64,000 nucleotides of DNA, from contig CAWBZV010000003.1 of NCBI GenBank assembly GCA_963793305.1, positions 64,001 through 128,000 on the forward strand, written 5' to 3'. The DNA is from an uncultured Gemmatimonadales bacterium. Lineage in GTDB: Bacteria; Gemmatimonadota; Gemmatimonadetes; Gemmatimonadales; Gemmatimonadaceae. Both the position numbers and the translations under genes were made by a program. Positions 7,541-16,408 of this stretch are shown here, one piece after another. Positions within the stretch are counted from its first letter, which is position 1. Every line of letters starts with the position of its first letter. A model generated the notes under the pieces. The model had not been told where the DNA came from. It ran no database searches and worked only from the letters and a program-made list of their open reading frames with translations.

Positions 7541-9258
7541 GACTCGACGCCCTCGCGTATTTGCTCGGCCGGTCGGCCCGAAACCGGTTCCGGGCGTCGC
7601 TGGCGCGTCTCCGCAAACCGGTGTACGCGGCCGCACTCGTCGTCGGTCTCTTGTACCTCGCGCTGATTTTGTATCGACCCGAGGGCGATGCCGCACCGTC
7701 GCCGACCGCGTACTTGCCGATCCAGCGCGGGTTCGGGCTCCTGAGCGCCTTCCTGCTCGCGGTGCTCGCCGCGAAGTGGTGGATCTTCGGTGCGTCGACG
7801 ATACCGCTGGCGTTCACGCCGGCCGAGATCCAGCTGCTGTTCCCGGCGCCGCTCCGCCGGCGGGATCTCATTCTCTATCGGTTGCTCCGCGTGCAGATCT
7901 CGATGCTGGTGAGCGCCGCGTTCATTGCGTTGTTGCTGTGGCGGAGCCGGGGCGCCGGGTATCCGCTCGCCTTGCCGCTCCGGATGATCGGGCTCTGGAT
8001 CCTGTTCGCGACTTCGTTCATGCACCAGATGGGCGTGACGCTGGTCCGGACCGCCGCGGCGCAGCGGGGCCGCGGGCTCGCGCGCAACCTCCCGGCGCTC
8101 GTCGTCGTGTGCACGGCCATCGGCCTGCTCGCGTACTCGTTGGCCCCCGCGCTCCTGTCGATCCATTCTATTGGAGACGTGCCGGCGGCAATCGGGCGAA
8201 TCGGCGACGCGATGCACGAGCCGATCCCGAGCGCGATCCTGGCGCCGTTTCGCTGGGTCATCGCGCCGGCGTACGCCGAGTCGAACCACGCCTGGCTCGT
8301 GGCAATCGGGCCGGCGCTGCTGCTGCTCGTCTTTCATTACATATGGGTGCTGCGCGCCGACGCCGTGTTCGAGGATGCCGCGGTCGATGCGTCGGCACGC
8401 CGGGCCGCGCGGCTCCGGGCTCGTGCCACCACGGCGCGTCCAGCCTCGACCAACACCCGCACGCTGGTCCGGCTGTCCGCTCACGGACCGGCGTGGTCGG
8501 CGATCGTGTGGAAGAACGTGACCGCCGCCGCGCGTGGGCTCAAGCTGACCGGGGCGATCCGGTTCACGTTCGTGCTCGTGGTCACGTTCTCGGTGTGGCG
8601 TGCGGTCGGGTTCCAGGCAACGAGAGAAGCCAGCCTGGTGGTGTTCGTCGGACTGGCCGCCCTCGTGGCGGTGGCTTACCTGGCGCTCGCCGGGCCCCTC
8701 ACGATCCGGAACGACCTGCGCGCCGACCTCGCGCATCTGCCGATGCTGCGCACGTATCCGCTCCACGGCCGCACGGTCGTGTTCGCCGAGGTCTTGTCGT
8801 CGACACTGACACTGACCGCGATGCAGGTTGCGCTGCTGGCTGTCGCGTTTGGGACCCTGACTGAGCGGCCGATCGGTGAGCGCTTCGGCGTGCTGCTCGC
8901 CGCCATCGTGATTCTGCCCGTCGTGAACCTCATGAGCCTCACGATCCAGAACGCGATTGCGTTGCTCGTGCCGGCGTGGGTCCGCATCGGTGGGCCGCTC
9001 GACTCCGGCCAGATCGCGTTCGAAGCGCTCGGCCAGCGCGCACTCGGCGCCATCGCGGCGTTGTTGGCGCTGGCGATCGCCCTCGCGCCCGCGACGGGCG
9101 CCGCGGTCCTCGTATCAATCCTCGCGGGTGGCAGCCCCGCAGCGGTAACGCTCGGAGTCGTGATCGGCTTAGCGATAGCGGCCTTCGAGATCGCGCTCGC
9201 GATGCGCTGGCTGGGGGGCGTGTTCGAGCGGACAGACCCGATCTCAATGCGGGACTAG
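7537..9258 (+). CDS. putative ABC exporter permease
   Basis: Many hydrophobic segments; GTGA overlap with the ATPase; FTPAEIQLLFPAP and AIVWKN motifs. Confidence 0.8.
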   Translation: MRLDALAYLLGRSARNRFRASLARLRKPVYAAALVVGLLYLALILYRPEGDAAPSPTAYLPIQRGFGLLSAFLLAVLAAKWWIFGASTIPLAFTPAEIQLLFPAPLRRRDLILYRLLRVQISMLVSAAFIALLLWRSRGAGYPLALPLRMIGLWILFATSFMHQMGVTLVRTAAAQRGRGLARNLPALVVVCTAIGLLAYSLAPALLSIHSIGDVPAAIGRIGDAMHEPIPSAILAPFRWVIAPAYAESNHAWLVAIGPALLLLVFHYIWVLRADAVFEDAAVDASARRAARLRARATTARPASTNTRTLVRLSAHGPAWSAIVWKNVTAAARGLKLTGAIRFTFVLVVTFSVWRAVGFQATREASLVVFVGLAALVAVAYLALAGPLTIRNDLRADLAHLPMLRTYPLHGRTVVFAEVLSSTLTLTAMQVALLAVAFGTLTERPIGERFGVLLAAIVILPVVNLMSLTIQNAIALLVPAWVRIGGPLDSGQIAFEALGQRALGAIAALLALAIALAPATGAAVLVSILAGGSPAAVTLGVVIGLAIAAFEIALAMRWLGGVFERTDPISMRD

Positions 9259-9708
9259 AAGCTCCACGACAACGAGATTCGTGACGGCGACCGGGCCGAA
9301 GTAGCGGCTGTCGAAGCTGCGGCGGTTGTCCGTCGCGAGCAGAAATAGCTCGCCTGGCCGTACGACTATCCACCCATCGGGCCGCGGCAATTTCCTCCCG
9401 CGCGAATCTGTGGCGAGCTGCCGGCTCCCCGGAATCAGAAACCCGTTGATGCGAACGCCCTCGGCGTCTATCTCGACGGTGTCGCCCGCGACAGCGGCGA
9501 CCCGTTTGCCCAATCGTTCCACGTGCCCAGGACATGGCCCGTAGCCTAGGTACCCGCGCTCACGAGCCAAGCGCCCGATCGCCAATGGCAGGCAGACGAC
9601 GACGATAGCGCCGCGCGTCACCGGAGCGTCAATCGGCCGATAGACACCGAGCGGCAGACTCGGGCTGAGGTTAATCCAGAGCGAGAGGATTCGACTCAGC
9701 CAGTCCAC
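9244..9708 (-). CDS. traF: conjugative transfer signal peptidase TraF (S26 family)
   Basis: WINLSPSLPLGVY (Ser), LGKRVAAVAGD (Lys), SFDSRYFGP. Confidence 0.85.
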   Translation of the reverse strand: MDWLSRILSLWINLSPSLPLGVYRPIDAPVTRGAIVVVCLPLAIGRLARERGYLGYGPCPGHVERLGKRVAAVAGDTVEIDAEGVRINGFLIPGSRQLATDSRGRKLPRPDGWIVVRPGELFLLATDNRRSFDSRYFGPVAVTNLVVVELLVPH

Positions 9709-10996
9709 GAAACGCTCGATCGCGAAGATAGCTCACACGCCGCGCCGCGATCGGCGCGTGCCCGCGCAGGAACAGCATCTGGAGATCGGGCGCCAGTCGC
9801 CGAATCTCGTCGGCCGTGATGAGCCGCCGCCCGCGCGTCTCCACCGTCGTCTCGCCGGCGAGTCGCGAGAGATGCTCGGCCGTCTCGTAGTCGTTGATGC
9901 CAAACGCCTGCAGTACCTCGGCGTTGGCGAGAAACGTCGACCAGTTCTCGCCATAGATCGCTCTCAACTGCGCGAGATCCTGGATGAGCAGCCAGAACCC
10001 GACACCGTACCCGCCGACGAGCGAGATGCCCTGCTCGACCGGCCGCATGCGGCCCAAGTGCGCGAACTCGTCGAGCAGGAACAGGATGCGTTGCGCGCGA
10101 CGCTGGCGCGTGATGAGATTCAGCATCGAGCCGATCATGAGACGAAGCCACCGCCGGTAGCCATCAATGCGCTCGGGCGGCAGGATCAGATACGTCGTCG
10201 TTTCCGCGCCCCCGCCGGGTCGCCGCGTCTCGCCGAGCGCCTGGATCATCGCCGGGCTGTCGAGAAAATGCGTATGGCTCTGGGCTGTCGAGATGACGGC
10301 CGAGCGTTCGCGGGGACCCTTTTGGCTGATCTGGGCCGCTGAGCGCCGCACGATCGCGTTCTTGCTCGCCGCCATCTCCGCGAGTAGCGCCCGGAATTCG
10401 CGTGCCGATAGCGTGAGATATCCTCGCACGGTCACGAGCGAAGTCTTCGCGTGCAGAATCAAGCCGACGAGCAGCGCGCGCGCTTCTTCTTCCCAGAACG
10501 GCTCGTTGCGGCCGTCAGGGACAACGAGCATATCGGCGACGAGCCGGGCATCGTCGACACCCCTGACGTGATCGAGCGGATTGTACGACGCGCGATCGTC
10601 ATCCGAGGCGATCACGCCGAACGGGTCATACGCCAGCACGCGGTGTCCGAGCGCACGGCGCCGCGCGGCGGTGACCGCATAGTTCTCGCCCTTGGGGTCC
10701 GTGACGACGATCGATCCCGGATAGAGCAGCAGGTTCGGGATCACCGCCCCCACGCCTTTCCCGGATCGCGTGGGCGCGACGGTCACGATATGTCCGTAAC
10801 CGGCATATCGCAGAAACCGCCAGCGGGTGCGGCCGATGATGAGCCCCTCGCGCCGGCGCAACGATCGCCCATCGTCCCACGTTGCACTCCCGCAGGCGTC
10901 GCTCGACCGTCGTCCGCCGCGGGTGAGTGTCGCGAGCAGAGCGAGCAGCGCGATTGTCGCACCAAAGGCGAACACAACGAGTGATAGCGATCCCAT
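9671..10996 (-). CDS. virD4: type IV coupling protein VirD4/TraG family (start may be up to 11032)
   Basis: N-terminal TM, GSATW, APTRSGKGVG Walker A, IVVTDPKGE, SYNPLD, LFLLDEFAHLG Walker B, QDLAQLRAIYG. Confidence 0.88.
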   Translation of the reverse strand: MGSLSLVVFAFGATIALLALLATLTRGGRRSSDACGSATWDDGRSLRRREGLIIGRTRWRFLRYAGYGHIVTVAPTRSGKGVGAVIPNLLLYPGSIVVTDPKGENYAVTAARRRALGHRVLAYDPFGVIASDDDRASYNPLDHVRGVDDARLVADMLVVPDGRNEPFWEEEARALLVGLILHAKTSLVTVRGYLTLSAREFRALLAEMAASKNAIVRRSAAQISQKGPRERSAVISTAQSHTHFLDSPAMIQALGETRRPGGGAETTTYLILPPERIDGYRRWLRLMIGSMLNLITRQRRAQRILFLLDEFAHLGRMRPVEQGISLVGGYGVGFWLLIQDLAQLRAIYGENWSTFLANAEVLQAFGINDYETAEHLSRLAGETTVETRGRRLITADEIRRLAPDLQMLFLRGHAPIAARRVSYLRDRAFRGLAESNPLALD

Positions 10997-11040
10997 ACTT
11001 ATAGAGACAGGCATAGCCCGTGCGATGATCAACGCCGGCT

Positions 11041-13156: not shown

Positions 13157-13853
13157 GAAAGGCCTGGAACGCCGCGCGCGCCTCGTCCGAATGCAGCGCT
13201 TCTCGAAACAACTCGGCCTCGCGCCGAATCGCGGCCAGCACGTCGGCGCGATCGTGTCTCAGCAAGCGCTTCGTATAGCGCATGGCTTGGCGAGGTTTGG
13301 CGTCGAGCCGCTGGGCGATGGCTCGGGCGTGACCGAGTAAGGCTTCGTCCGGCACGATCTCGTTCGCGATGCCAACGGCGACCGCGATCTCGGCGTTGAA
13401 CGGCTCGCCGAGCATGAGCCACTGTGCGGCTCGTCTCATGCCAACGAGGCTCGGCAAGAGCAACGTGCTGGCGGCTTCAGGCACGAGTCCGAGGTCGATG
13501 AAGGGCATTTGAAATCGCGCCGACGGCGACACAAAGACAAAGTCGCAGTGCAGCAGCATGGTCGTGCCGATGCCGATGGCCGGACCGCGGACGGCGGCGA
13601 CTAGTGGCTTATCGAATTCCGCCAACGCAAAGAGAAAGCGAAAGACCGGCGCGTCCTCGCCCCCAGGCGGGTGTTCCAGGAAATCGCGGAGGTCATTCCC
13701 GGCGGTAAACGTCGATCCCGCGCCGGTGATGAGCACCGCGCCGACCGCATCATCCTGGCGGGCGGCGTTGAGGTCGGCCGCGAGCGATGTATACATCGCG
13801 GCCGTGATCGCGTTCTTTTTGTCAGGCCGATCGATGACCAGCGTGCGAATCAT
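13116..13853 (-). CDS. enoyl-CoA hydratase/isomerase
   Basis: DRPDKKNAIT, FTAGNDL, AIGIGTTMLLHCD, LGLVPEAAS. Confidence 0.93.
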   Translation of the reverse strand: MIRTLVIDRPDKKNAITAAMYTSLAADLNAARQDDAVGAVLITGAGSTFTAGNDLRDFLEHPPGGEDAPVFRFLFALAEFDKPLVAAVRGPAIGIGTTMLLHCDFVFVSPSARFQMPFIDLGLVPEAASTLLLPSLVGMRRAAQWLMLGEPFNAEIAVAVGIANEIVPDEALLGHARAIAQRLDAKPRQAMRYTKRLLRHDRADVLAAIRREAELFREALHSDEARAAFQAFLTSQKSTPSSRPQ

Positions 13854-14652
13854 GCGGGGCGTCTTCGTCGGTCATGGTGACGGTGCGTTCCAAGCGCGCG
13901 GCCATGCGCAGGAGAAAATCGTGCGGCTCGAGCTGCACGGCGAGTGACGACGGCAGGAACCCCGAGACGATGTGCACTTCGTTGGCGAACCCGCGTTCGG
14001 TCGCGTAGCCGAGTTTGCTGGCGACGTTGCGCACGGAGGCGCGCGCGGTTCGCAGGTAGTGATACGCCCGCACCACGCGTGCGACGCGCACGATCATCCA
14101 ACCGGGCGCGAGCCCCGCGCGTTCGAGCGCGCGGTCGAACGTGCGGCGTGACATCACGGCGGTGCGCGCCAGCTCGTCGACGCTGGCGATCGTGTGCGGC
14201 GCGCGCAGCAACTCTTCGATCGCGTGCGCGAGCGACGGCGGCACCTTGCGGAGCAGCTCGTCGATCATCGGCAAGAGCAACTCGGTCAAGGTGTCCGCTG
14301 GCAGCGCATCCAGCAAAGTCCGTATCGCTTCTGGACTGTCGTCGAATCCGCGGAGCATTAAGTGCCGATAGCCGTGCGCGGCGAGGACGCCATGCGCGCG
14401 CACCGCGTCAGGCGACACCGTCGTGTACGCGATCACGTGGACCGACGAATGACGCGCGAGCACGGCGACGAGCGCCGGCAGCGCGTCGAGCCCGACGAGT
14501 TGCGGATCGATGATGGCGACATTGATCGGATAGAACCTGAGTGCGCCCTCGAGCTCCGACAGCCCCATGACGTTGTGCACGGCGTGCACACCGCGGACGA
14601 CGGCACGGAAGGGGCGCAGGAGTTGGTCAGGCAAATAGGCAGCTATGTCCAT
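13822..14652 (-). CDS. AraC family regulator with N-terminal receiver-like domain
   Basis: C-terminal double HTH (SVDELARTAVMSRRTFDR, VRNVASKLGYATERGF); N-terminal INVAIIDP...VIAYT receiver-like pattern. Confidence 0.8.
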   Translation of the reverse strand: MDIAAYLPDQLLRPFRAVVRGVHAVHNVMGLSELEGALRFYPINVAIIDPQLVGLDALPALVAVLARHSSVHVIAYTTVSPDAVRAHGVLAAHGYRHLMLRGFDDSPEAIRTLLDALPADTLTELLLPMIDELLRKVPPSLAHAIEELLRAPHTIASVDELARTAVMSRRTFDRALERAGLAPGWMIVRVARVVRAYHYLRTARASVRNVASKLGYATERGFANEVHIVSGFLPSSLAVQLEPHDFLLRMAARLERTVTMTDEDAPHDSHAGHRSA

Positions 14653-14815
14653 GTGACAGAACGATCGAGCGAACTCGGCAGGAATCGTGCAGTTGACTCA
14701 CGTAGCGTGGCTGGCTCACGACTGAGATTGGCCTGATGACGACATGGGCGCCCCCCAGCCCTAACCCAACTATTCAGTTGACGGGATCGAAACCCTCCAC
14801 GTTACCGAGGAACGC

Positions 14816-14971
14816 ATGGCCAAACGTTTCGGGCTGATTGCGGCAGTCGCGCTGATATCAGGCGTACTCGCGGCGTGCAGCAACCCGACGGCTCCGGCCG
14901 CAGCGCCAAGCACGAATCACATCAACGTGCCGCAGCAGTCCGCCGGCGTGTTGATCGGCGGCGATACCTGA
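14816..14971 (+). CDS. small 51-aa lipoprotein/peptide precursor (below ORF-track cutoff)
   Basis: GAGGA RBS at 14807-14811; MAKRFGLIAAVALISGVLAA-CSNPTAPAAAPSTNHINVPQQSAGVLIGGDT*; basic N-terminus, hydrophobic core, lipobox LAAC. Confidence 0.8.
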   Translation: MAKRFGLIAAVALISGVLAACSNPTAPAAAPSTNHINVPQQSAGVLIGGDT

Positions 14972-14979
14972 CTCAATCG

Positions 14980-16326
14980 CTAGTCGGCCTCCCCGGCGGT
15001 CGCCATCTCGCGTAATTCGCGGACAAAGCTCGTGACACGTTCGATGGCCGACGTCGGCGGTTGAGTGAGGTGTCGCGCATCGCGCGTCGGCAACACTGGC
15101 GCCGCGCTGAGCTGTTCCGCCATGATCAAAATCTGGTTGAACCGATGCTGCTCGGCGAGATGAATCGCTCGCGCGAGCGCATTGCGTGCATCGGCGGCGC
15201 GGCCGAACCGTCGATAGCCATCGCCGAGTTGCAGGTAGTACCTGGCCGCGATATGCGGCGGCAGCGCCTTCGCCGCGGCAAGCTCGCGCGCCAGGCGATT
15301 GAACAACGTCTCCTGCCCGTCGCCGGCGGCCAGCTCCAGCAGATTGACGGTTGCCGACCATCGCTGCATCTGCGTCGATCCCGCCGCGCGCAACACGAGC
15401 AGTGCGTCACGCCCCGCATCGCGGTGCCCGAGCTCGACCAGCACCTGAGCGATGTCGTGCAGCGCGTTGTCGCGCAGCCGGTCCTCGGTGTAGACGCGCA
15501 TGGCCTCGTGCAGGTGCGTCAGCGCGCACTCGAACTGCTCACGCTCGTATGCGACATAGGCCCGCTCGTGGAGCGCTCGCGCGAGCGTCTCAAAGTACGA
15601 CGGGTGCTGATTCGACATCGCACGGGCGTCGTCAATGACGTCGTCGAGCAGGGTCTCCGCGGCCGGCAGGTCGCCACGCAGCCGGATGACGGACGCCGCA
15701 CCCGTGCGGGCCAACAGCGAGTTGTACGCGTCGCCCACGGCGTTCGCGGCCCCGACCGCCATTTCGTACGCGTCTGCCGCGTCCGCGAGACGGCCGAGGT
15801 GGCGACGACAGCGCCCCAGTCGAACGCACGCGTTCGGGACGAGCTCGAACTCGTCGGCGGTGCGTGCATGCGCGAGGAACGTCCAGTAAACGTCGTCGGC
15901 GAGCTTCCACAGCTGGGTGTCGTCGCCGTCCAGCAACCGCGCATAGGCGAGAACGCTGGTCAAGACAACCGGCGACCGCCGCGCCCACCAGCGCGTGACG
16001 GCGAGCACGATGCCCGTGAGGATGTTCGGGATGGGCCCCGCCTCGCACGCGATGACCGCGCGCTGCACGGCCTCGATCTCTTCCAGCGTCGGCGTCGGCA
16101 CGGCGGGCGCTCGACTGTTCGCCCAGCGGTCGACCAACCGCATGGTGACCAGTCCGGCCATCGTGACCCGCCAGGCTGGTTCCTGCTCAATGGCCGCGCC
16201 CTCGAGGCCGCGCGCCTGGCCCGCCTCGGCCAAATCCCTGAGAACCGCAAAGAACCCCTCGTGCGCGGTCGCGCGTCGCGCGCCGGCCGACACTCCGGCC
16301 AGGCCGGTCATCATGTCGAGTGGCAT
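14980..16326 (-). CDS. cytoplasmic TPR repeat protein (start uncertain, 16311-16365)
   Basis: Successive TPR-like helices (LGRCRRHLGRLADAADAY, ALHDIAQVLVELGHRDAG, YYLQLGDGYRRFGRAADA); no signal peptide or clear HTH. Confidence 0.8.
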   Translation of the reverse strand: MPLDMMTGLAGVSAGARRATAHEGFFAVLRDLAEAGQARGLEGAAIEQEPAWRVTMAGLVTMRLVDRWANSRAPAVPTPTLEEIEAVQRAVIACEAGPIPNILTGIVLAVTRWWARRSPVVLTSVLAYARLLDGDDTQLWKLADDVYWTFLAHARTADEFELVPNACVRLGRCRRHLGRLADAADAYEMAVGAANAVGDAYNSLLARTGAASVIRLRGDLPAAETLLDDVIDDARAMSNQHPSYFETLARALHERAYVAYEREQFECALTHLHEAMRVYTEDRLRDNALHDIAQVLVELGHRDAGRDALLVLRAAGSTQMQRWSATVNLLELAAGDGQETLFNRLARELAAAKALPPHIAARYYLQLGDGYRRFGRAADARNALARAIHLAEQHRFNQILIMAEQLSAAPVLPTRDARHLTQPPTSAIERVTSFVRELREMATAGEAD

Positions 16327-16408
16327 CGTAAGACCCAACATTGATCCGCCGCCCCCCAGGGGCAAGTGGCGAGATCACCCCTTGCGCGTAGCGTCCGGGC
16401 CCCGCTCG

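Follow-up and report, generated by a model that had tools for sequence, protein, structure and literature searches.

We examined a small gene cluster in a stretch of 64,000 nucleotides (the window; positions 64,001 to 128,000 of contig CAWBZV010000003.1, assembly GCA_963793305.1) from an uncultured Gemmatimonadales bacterium. Three genes, encoding an AraC-type regulator, a 51-aa peptide and a tetratricopeptide repeat (TPR) protein, lie there side by side, and a first-pass annotation made from the letters alone had read them as a Rap-Phr-like quorum-sensing module. All three open reading frames (ORFs) are where that annotation placed them, and the facing stops of the peptide and TPR genes are indeed 8 nt apart. 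The host genome (working label G000) belongs to the Gemmatimonadaceae, as do three relatives, metagenome-assembled genomes whose TPR proteins are 84-98% identical to that of the window. Other loci, genomes and TPR proteins carry L, G and P labels, respectively. The features of the cluster are as follows.

13822..14652, minus strand: regulator of 276 aa with an atypical receiver and an AraC-type helix-turn-helix (HTH), of a subfamily found with the TPR gene
14707..14748, plus strand: direct repeat of two 21-bp units (TGGC-n6-ACGAC), diverged from the repeat typical of the family, TGTCGCAAAA-n11-TGTCGCAAAA; likely AraC operator
14766..14788, plus strand: block without change across the window and nine relatives, at the distance of a -10-like hexamer in family members; likely the core of the peptide promoter
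14807..14811, plus strand: ribosome-binding site GAGGA (RBS-like motif in 83/90 family members)
14816..14971, plus strand: 51-aa lipoprotein-type propeptide with signal 1-20, Cys21, a generic S/T-x-P-T-A-P linker and a variable tail
14948..14968, plus strand: candidate mature signal VLIGGDT, the last seven residues, its length inferred from 7-8-mer repeats in homologues
14816..15936, no strand assigned: strain-variable block of the peptide gene and TPR residues 136-453
14980..16341, minus strand: HTH-less, predicted cytoplasmic TPR protein of ~453 aa with an N-terminal helical domain, ~seven TPR hairpins and a C-terminal helix; the start may be 16365 or 16326

The start of the TPR gene is ambiguous (TTG at 16365, ATG at 16341 or ATG at 16326), and we favour a length of ~450 aa because close homologues have 447-454 aa.

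The TPR protein and the AraC-type regulator

The description of the TPR protein as cytoplasmic, HTH-less, all-TPR and about 450 aa long was borne out by prediction. TPR families were the only Pfam families of note (TPR_12, E 2e-10), no HTH family matched in Pfam, and hydrophobic windows peak at 1.59, below transmembrane strength. The predicted structure is all-helical (pLDDT, the predicted local distance difference test score, 93), with four long N-terminal helices, ~seven hairpins over residues 124-399, a cap and a tail helix. Its size and repeats fall within the range of an RRNPP(A) receptor (250-500 aa with TPR repeats), and the lack of an HTH in both Pfam and the model is that of the Rap subfamily. 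An Asp/Asn ladder at repeat position 6, numbered by TPR convention rather than by coordinates, is kept in the C-terminal repeats (Asp296 in 93%, Asn/Glu333).

A closer kinship with Rap found no clear support. No NCBIfam family reached its cut-off, and no described RRNPP(A) subfamily, Rap included, was among the best 60 of 115 PDB sequence matches. In structure comparison, LGN (Z 23.5, root-mean-square deviation (rmsd) 3.8, 288 residues aligned), Pins (23.0) and SprE (21.4) outscored the Rap proteins (Z 18.8-19.6; for Rap pLS20, Z 19.6, rmsd 8.2, 325 aligned) and NprR (18.5), and Foldseek gave similar results. Just one of the Rap alignments reaches residue 58 of the TPR protein. We therefore read the predicted fold as that of a generic TPR superhelix. 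The genomic evidence below suggests a Rap-Phr-like way of working; with so generic a fold, RRNPP membership is a possibility.

HTH_18 is present in 73/73 members of the AraC family, and a match to AdpA (E 3e-16) agrees with the double HTH of AraC/XylS proteins. The receiver-like N-terminus that had been proposed for the regulator stands as a predicted fold, not as a canonical receiver. Its model has a five-strand receiver-type fold, for which the top Foldseek matches include FixJ, RcsB and NarL, with no row reaching E<=0.001. Of the canonical receiver residues, the phospho-Asp (Asp49) is conserved in 97% of homologues and the Thr/Ser (Thr77) in 80%, but neither the acidic pocket after strand 1 nor the Lys after strand 5 is conserved. 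Judged from these alignments, the receiver is atypical rather than that of a canonical response regulator. Hence, a Rap-like phosphatase role for the TPR protein is doubtful, and it more likely acts as an anti-activator or co-activator of the AraC protein.

A small gene for a lipoprotein-type propeptide

By its pattern of sequence change, the 51-aa ORF behaves like a coding gene, as the first-pass annotation had supposed. Besides the conserved RBS-like motif, the start codon is ATG in 86/90 family members, the third codon position is the most changed in 16/16 informative pairs (17 compared; pairs share references), and length differences among the compared pairs never break the frame. A FastTree tree served only for choosing pairs and viewing tail classes. 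Contigs from soil metatranscriptomes cover most or all of the ORF in 4/4 runs, and three RNA contigs begin at 14807-14809; such contigs are no proof of transcription and give neither its level nor its start.

The peptide carries an export-type signal, and here the annotation needs a correction, in that the precursor is lipoprotein-type by an invariant lipobox Cys21 (a pattern-based call). Cys21 and Pro27 are invariant in 83 aligned sequences. Propeptides of the family mostly have 40-60 aa, within the 10-100 aa of RRNPP(A) propeptides. The linker after the Cys is common to ordinary lipoproteins (41/294 long lipobox ORFs of the host genome begin C-x(2-5)-[TS][AGSD]P), and we accordingly rejected a post-Cys T[AG]P motif as signal-specific. 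The linker looks lineage-typical for lipoproteins, possibly a sorting or cleavage motif, and the specific part of the propeptide is therefore the tail.

Three features mark the tails. First, they end in a G/S/N/T-rich unit of about seven residues. Second, they hold two Cys (62/90) or none (28/90), never one or three. Third, 7-8-mer tandem repeats occur in the tails of L045, L069 and L071 (3 true repeats among 92), and in L149, from another family, the tail unit is present three times in tandem. Tandem repeated units are likewise described for RRNPPA propeptides (PMC11343458).

We also noted two peptide-like genes apart from the typical cassette. An orphan gene of the family type (G000:C3:753932) has a receiver-like gene upstream and no TPR gene found beside it. 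At L039 (G000:C3:1332838), a TPR paralogue faces a convergent gene for a lipoprotein of 144 aa, whose linker is followed by a Cys-loop segment; judged by eye its tail is folded and copper-protein-like, and Pfam gave no match.

Conserved linkage of the three genes

The linkage of the genes holds well beyond the window. Outside the host genome, 87 TPR genes were found, 81 with a convergent lipobox ORF, 81 with an AraC gene and 78 with both, in line with the arrangement first proposed from one locus. Among the six TPR genes without a peptide call, three have a peptide just beyond the search window or upstream in a rearranged operon; among the six without AraC, three stop at a contig edge. Two genomes keep the cluster in the rearranged order peptide-AraC-TPR-AraC. 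One locus, L007 (genome G157, unpublished), contributes a single row to the alignments and tallies and one case in which a TPR gene is preceded by the repeat; no main claim rests there.

The host genome itself has 22 TPR loci, of which nine have a convergent short lipobox ORF, against 14/1951 control genes (Fisher p 3e-13). At two further loci the peptide lies directly upstream, and one reads through. Five TPR loci have an AraC neighbour; peptides accompany TPR genes without AraC in six convergent and two co-directional pairs.

Across genomes, the TPR and AraC families go together as had been expected. Profile searches of 201 genomes of the phylum found TPR in 85 and AraC in 82, with both in 75, TPR only in 10, AraC only in seven and neither in 109; genomes with both come nearly all from two families of the window's order, and kin are not independent. 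The best seven Atlas clusters listed were commonly Gemmatimonadota. PADLOC had no match for the TPR or AraC protein, and a search of viral contigs and phage/plasmid records with one TPR homologue (P0019) gave no locus and no match, respectively, at low sensitivity and in collections where Gemmatimonadota elements are rare.

The same neighbourhoods bear on a different fate for the peptide, as the precursor of a ribosomally synthesised and post-translationally modified peptide (RiPP) with the TPR protein as scaffold, or as a ligand of a histidine kinase in the membrane, which would phosphorylate Asp49. Tails with several cores are reminiscent of RiPP precursors, and the 97% conservation of Asp49 and a hybrid kinase adjoining one cassette (L075) would suit the kinase route. 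We find both routes barely credible, as no recurrent modifying enzyme or kinase lies near 88 loci (~1.5 kb flanks), the surroundings are not those of a RiPP cluster, and the receiver is without the other canonical residues.

Several observations concern the TPR paralogues themselves. Five of the 22 are split over frames or truncated (G000 C3:1063734, C3:593083, C5:663939, C9:54313 and C3:1336073), as are, by frame splits, several of the repeat targets described below; either assembly error or decay may account for this. Upstream of the AraC-less paralogues L035, L038, L040, L043 and L037 a reading 'C[ST]GPxxH' recurs, either a conserved N-terminal extension or a DNA motif. AraC-less or extra paralogues (L035, L037, L038, L042, L045, L046 and L048) often adjoin other regulators, among them response regulators, kinases, an extracytoplasmic function (ECF) sigma/anti-sigma pair, an XRE protein and a SIR2-receiver fusion, hinting at other partners.

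Joint variation of peptide and TPR repeats among strains

The comparison of close relatives revealed a variable block. In L253-L255, from metagenome relatives, AraC is 98-99% and TPR residues 1-135 are 96-99% identical to the window, with 7-12% of four-fold sites different. TPR residues 136-453 are only 83-87% identical (40-50% of four-fold sites different) and the peptide 62-70% (32-36%), and the dip in identity spans ~15950 to 14800. L001 and L256 have the peptide of the window, and their peptide and TPR 3' end are 97-100% identical to it, above their flanks. Ten loci hold six tail alleles (VLIGGDT, TLVGSDT, TLIGSEG, TLMGSDT, TLWGSDT and VLSGSDT), with L001/L256, L002/L255 and L003/L258 being duplicates.

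Alleles also cross lineages. In P0005 the N-domain is 99% like the window, whereas residues 286-400 are 81% like the window and 92% like L258. Of the predicted groove positions, 292, 329 and 371 differ according to the peptide allele, and 329, 371, 367, 332 and 213 are also in the top 20 of an order-wide covariation scan. We regard this block, seen in sequence comparison, as the strongest evidence for a ligand-receptor pair. A peptide and TPR repeats that vary as one unit resemble a pherotype pattern, and the boundary suggests a division of labour in which the repeats go with the peptide and the N-domain with AraC.

Such allele blocks are typical of toxin-immunity pairs too. The exported peptide might harm or mark non-kin and the TPR protein neutralise or detect it, with AraC controlling expression only. 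Apparent balancing selection on the block, toxin-like domains among the repeat targets (below) and a weak Atlas likeness to a colicin lysis protein (0.76, a lead only) would fit a toxin-immunity or self/non-self pair. However, the tails are short and Gly/Ser/Asn-rich rather than cationic, TPR genes persist without a peptide, TPR and AraC co-occur genome-wide, and the strain-invariant N-domain of the TPR protein tracks AraC. We judge this explanation very improbable.

A tandem repeat upstream of the peptide gene and its second sites

The intergenic region contains a tandem repeat that is tied to the presence of AraC, in line with the proposed control of the peptide promoter by AraC. In the window alone it has 11/16 matches (shuffle p 0.017), and among nine relatives it is 90% identical. 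A period of 21 is the best lag upstream of the peptide gene in 72/81 loci with AraC and in 0/6 without. AraC proteins typically bind tandem half-sites spaced by two helical turns, and the repeat is likely the AraC operator. A scan of the intergenic region for a sigma-70 consensus gave no match.

We then looked beyond the cassette. A cassette-derived pattern matched 29/29 AraC-positive genomes of family f2 and 0/6 AraC-negative ones, with 0 matches to the reversed pattern; matches at cassettes are circular, whereas 38 second sites are not. These 38 and two further sites all have a co-oriented ORF within ~210 nt (a lenient filter). Among the 40 first genes, seven are defence- or toxin-like (Tox-REase-9, GmrSD, UvrD-PD-(D/E)XK, HsdM, Tle1-like, DUF4062 and Cap4, E 1.3e-5), eight two-component and three TonB receptors. 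In a baseline of 94 genes (from 150 called in 20 arbitrary regions), none fell in the defence/toxin or two-component classes (Fisher p 1e-4), a comparison in which genomes differ in part, thresholds are 1e-4 against 1e-5, and orthologues are included among the two-component and TonB targets. Some TPR genes, too, have the repeat in front of them (5/93 at >=12 bits, two of them reversed; also in G111). A looser operator pattern run over 36 genomes was dropped as mostly coding noise.

Behind repeat sites at L216:1508-3100 (in G156), L115 and L123:1595-2470 lie two regulators followed by a tail-sheath gene, a gene for a lipoprotein containing a JAB-like motif beside an integrase-like gene, and a redoxin gene with one for a secreted Cys-rich peptide after it.

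With a matrix trained on other genomes, the host genome yielded a variant repeat, and retraining on 10 sites gave 19 matches versus 0 reversed. Behind these variant sites lie a secreted SH3 protein (a target also in G046), a DUF4297/LmuA-like nuclease with a STAND ATPase, and PDC-S21; on the divergent side are PDC-S35 and a Mokosh-like helicase. Other AraC paralogues are likelier readers of the variant sites than the AraC of the window. An AraC orthologue at G000:C4:145079-145888, in the place customary for the family, behind a polysaccharide deacetylase gene, and with no adjoining TPR or peptide gene, may be the reader of the 19 sites, controlled in trans by TPR paralogues.

The defence genes behind second repeats would also suit an envelope or danger sensor, in which an anchored lipopeptide frees its tail only on envelope damage (phage, kin lysis or protease activation) and the same TPR-AraC pair reads it. 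The lipid anchor and the generic Gemmatimonadota lipoprotein linker (the 41/294 above) agree with such a sensor. We consider it unlikely, since alleles shared across lineages suit cell-cell recognition, whereas pure self-monitoring needs no diversity, and since one genome holds many paralogous pairs with different tails.

A candidate peptide signalling circuit

We suggest that the three genes form a conserved unit, probably a peptide signalling circuit of the Rap-Phr kind. Export and lipidation of the lipoprotein-type precursor would proceed via Sec, Lgt and LspA, and a protease would clip off the tail of about seven residues. The tail would re-enter the cytoplasm through an Opp-type importer and bind the C-terminal TPR repeats. 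The strain-invariant N-terminal TPR domain may contact the AraC receiver, a contact that the bound peptide would alter, and AraC would then bind the 21-bp repeat and switch on the peptide gene and other genes. Our first guess is that the TPR protein is an anti-activator released by the peptide, giving positive feedback. Some of the machinery is at hand, as the host genome has three full LspA and two SBP_bac_5 matches (Opp-type binding proteins), and SBP_bac_5 adjoins 3/88 cassettes. A LuxI search found none in 61 genomes, a result that says little because no control genome matched either.

Several results weigh against this circuit. First, Rap proteins are not the best structural match to the TPR model, LGN/Pins and SprE scoring above them. 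Second, 13 of the 22 host-genome TPR paralogues are without a convergent short peptide ORF (for three of them, the peptide is upstream or read-through). Third, groove positions are not enriched for changes among close relatives (5-9/42 versus 35-45/231). Fourth, order-wide covariation of groove and peptide is weak (partial r 0.39, p ~0.02) and equalled by shifted position sets; other peptide definitions gave p 0.07-0.13, and divergence of the AraC HTH correlates more with the groove (0.535). The expected covariation of peptide and receptor holds between strains, where peptide and TPR repeats vary together, but order-wide its signal is weak and not register-specific. Fifth, the window-type repeat is without a clear second site in its genome (at <=2 mismatches, three matches including itself versus three in the control). 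Sixth, no protease or importer is fixed in the cassette among the neighbours of 88 loci, and release and re-entry have to overcome a lipid anchor and two membranes, a harder task than in Bacillota.

The two-membrane problem would be sidestepped by an export-coupled partner switch, in which the TPR protein co-activates AraC and unexported propeptide sequesters it until Sec export, with no re-import. Such a switch would be like MxiE-IpgC, where IpgC is a TPR protein. There is precedent for an AraC regulator whose chaperone co-activator is sequestered by secreted proteins (bioRxiv 2022.04.20.488988), and exported proteins are common among the repeat targets. We nevertheless hold the switch to be quite improbable, as the 0-or-2 Cys rule suggests that a disulfide forms once the peptide is exported, short units in tandem fit processing, and pherotype-like alleles would be left unexplained.

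For the Rap-Phr-like circuit, then, linkage, co-occurrence, the AraC-linked repeat and the allele block all speak in its favour, and the module first proposed for a diderm is partly supported; a kinship with Rap is less certain, and the receiver is atypical.

Comparison with known systems and implications

The cassette shares several features with Rap-Phr: an HTH-less TPR protein of ~400-450 aa adjoining a small exported propeptide whose C-terminal unit is duplicated in some cases; genomes with many paralogues and with orphan receptors; a presumed target with a receiver fold; and Rap structures among the top bacterial matches to the TPR model (Z 18.8-19.6). It differs in its diderm phylum, lipobox precursor, convergent genes, Cys-pair loop in two thirds of tails, and dedicated, linked AraC partner with an atypical receiver. 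In addition, it has ~seven hairpins where Rap has 3HB and nine TPRs, and LGN/Pins score higher. The Rap features compared are those given in PMC11343458 and PMC9765709.

With its receptor and propeptide genes 8 nt apart, the cassette has the adjacency typical of RRNPP(A) systems. On the five features of the genomic RRNPP signature, as given in PMC10075063, it falls in the relaxed tier, which admits a lipoprotein signal (here called by pattern), and not in the strict Sec/SPI tier. In PMC9765709, RRNPPA profiles are reported from Firmicutes genera (13,513 genomes), and the PMC10075063 tool is illustrated, per its figure legend, on Firmicutes and viruses.

Turning to pherotypes, agr groups invite a comparison with the allele block. 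So do the ComQXPA pherotypes of Bacillus subtilis, where a highly polymorphic signal-plus-receptor segment sits in a conserved background with coexisting alleles (PMC4408185). There, however, a membrane kinase serves as receptor for a modified peptide, whereas the receptor candidate of the cassette is a TPR protein of the cytoplasm. MxiE-IpgC and InvF-SicA likewise place an AraC-family regulator under a non-DNA-binding partner and an exported protein (bioRxiv 2022.04.20.488988). Unlike the cassette, they involve type III secretion and a small chaperone, with no propeptide and no allele diversity. In the enterococcal cCF10/cAD1 systems with PrgX/TraA, a lipoprotein precursor contains the pheromone, which is the signal peptide itself, and the reader is a cytoplasmic protein with a TPR fold. 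In the cassette, by contrast, repeats, the Cys pair and a conserved end motif point to the C-terminal tail, and divergence of the signal peptide does not track the groove (r -0.19).

Elsewhere in the window, positions 9244-11032 hold genes for an S26-type peptidase (TraF-like) and a VirD4/TraG-type coupling protein, possibly a mobile-element remnant; other conjugation genes were not seen nearby.

The cassette is real and conserved, and we found no description of it in the open-access literature, so it is apparently undescribed. Intracellular peptide quorum sensing is described from Bacillota (PMC10075063, PMC9765709). We can tentatively picture, as a possibility that falls short of probable, a Gemmatimonadota system, evolved apart from the RRNPP systems of Bacillota, of cytoplasmic pheromones made from lipoprotein precursors, with exchange of pherotype blocks and a kin-density AraC regulon (anti-phage defence, interbacterial toxins, a contractile-sheath operon and surface proteins). 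The six natural alleles with matching TPR variants, the specificity candidates 292/329/371, the operator and the synthesisable 7-mers make the circuit directly testable. If true, it would be a lineage-wide equivalent in a diderm soil phylum, showing that two membranes are no bar to a peptide signal that begins as a lipoprotein, and the first cell-to-cell language for a little-studied phylum, linked to defence genes.

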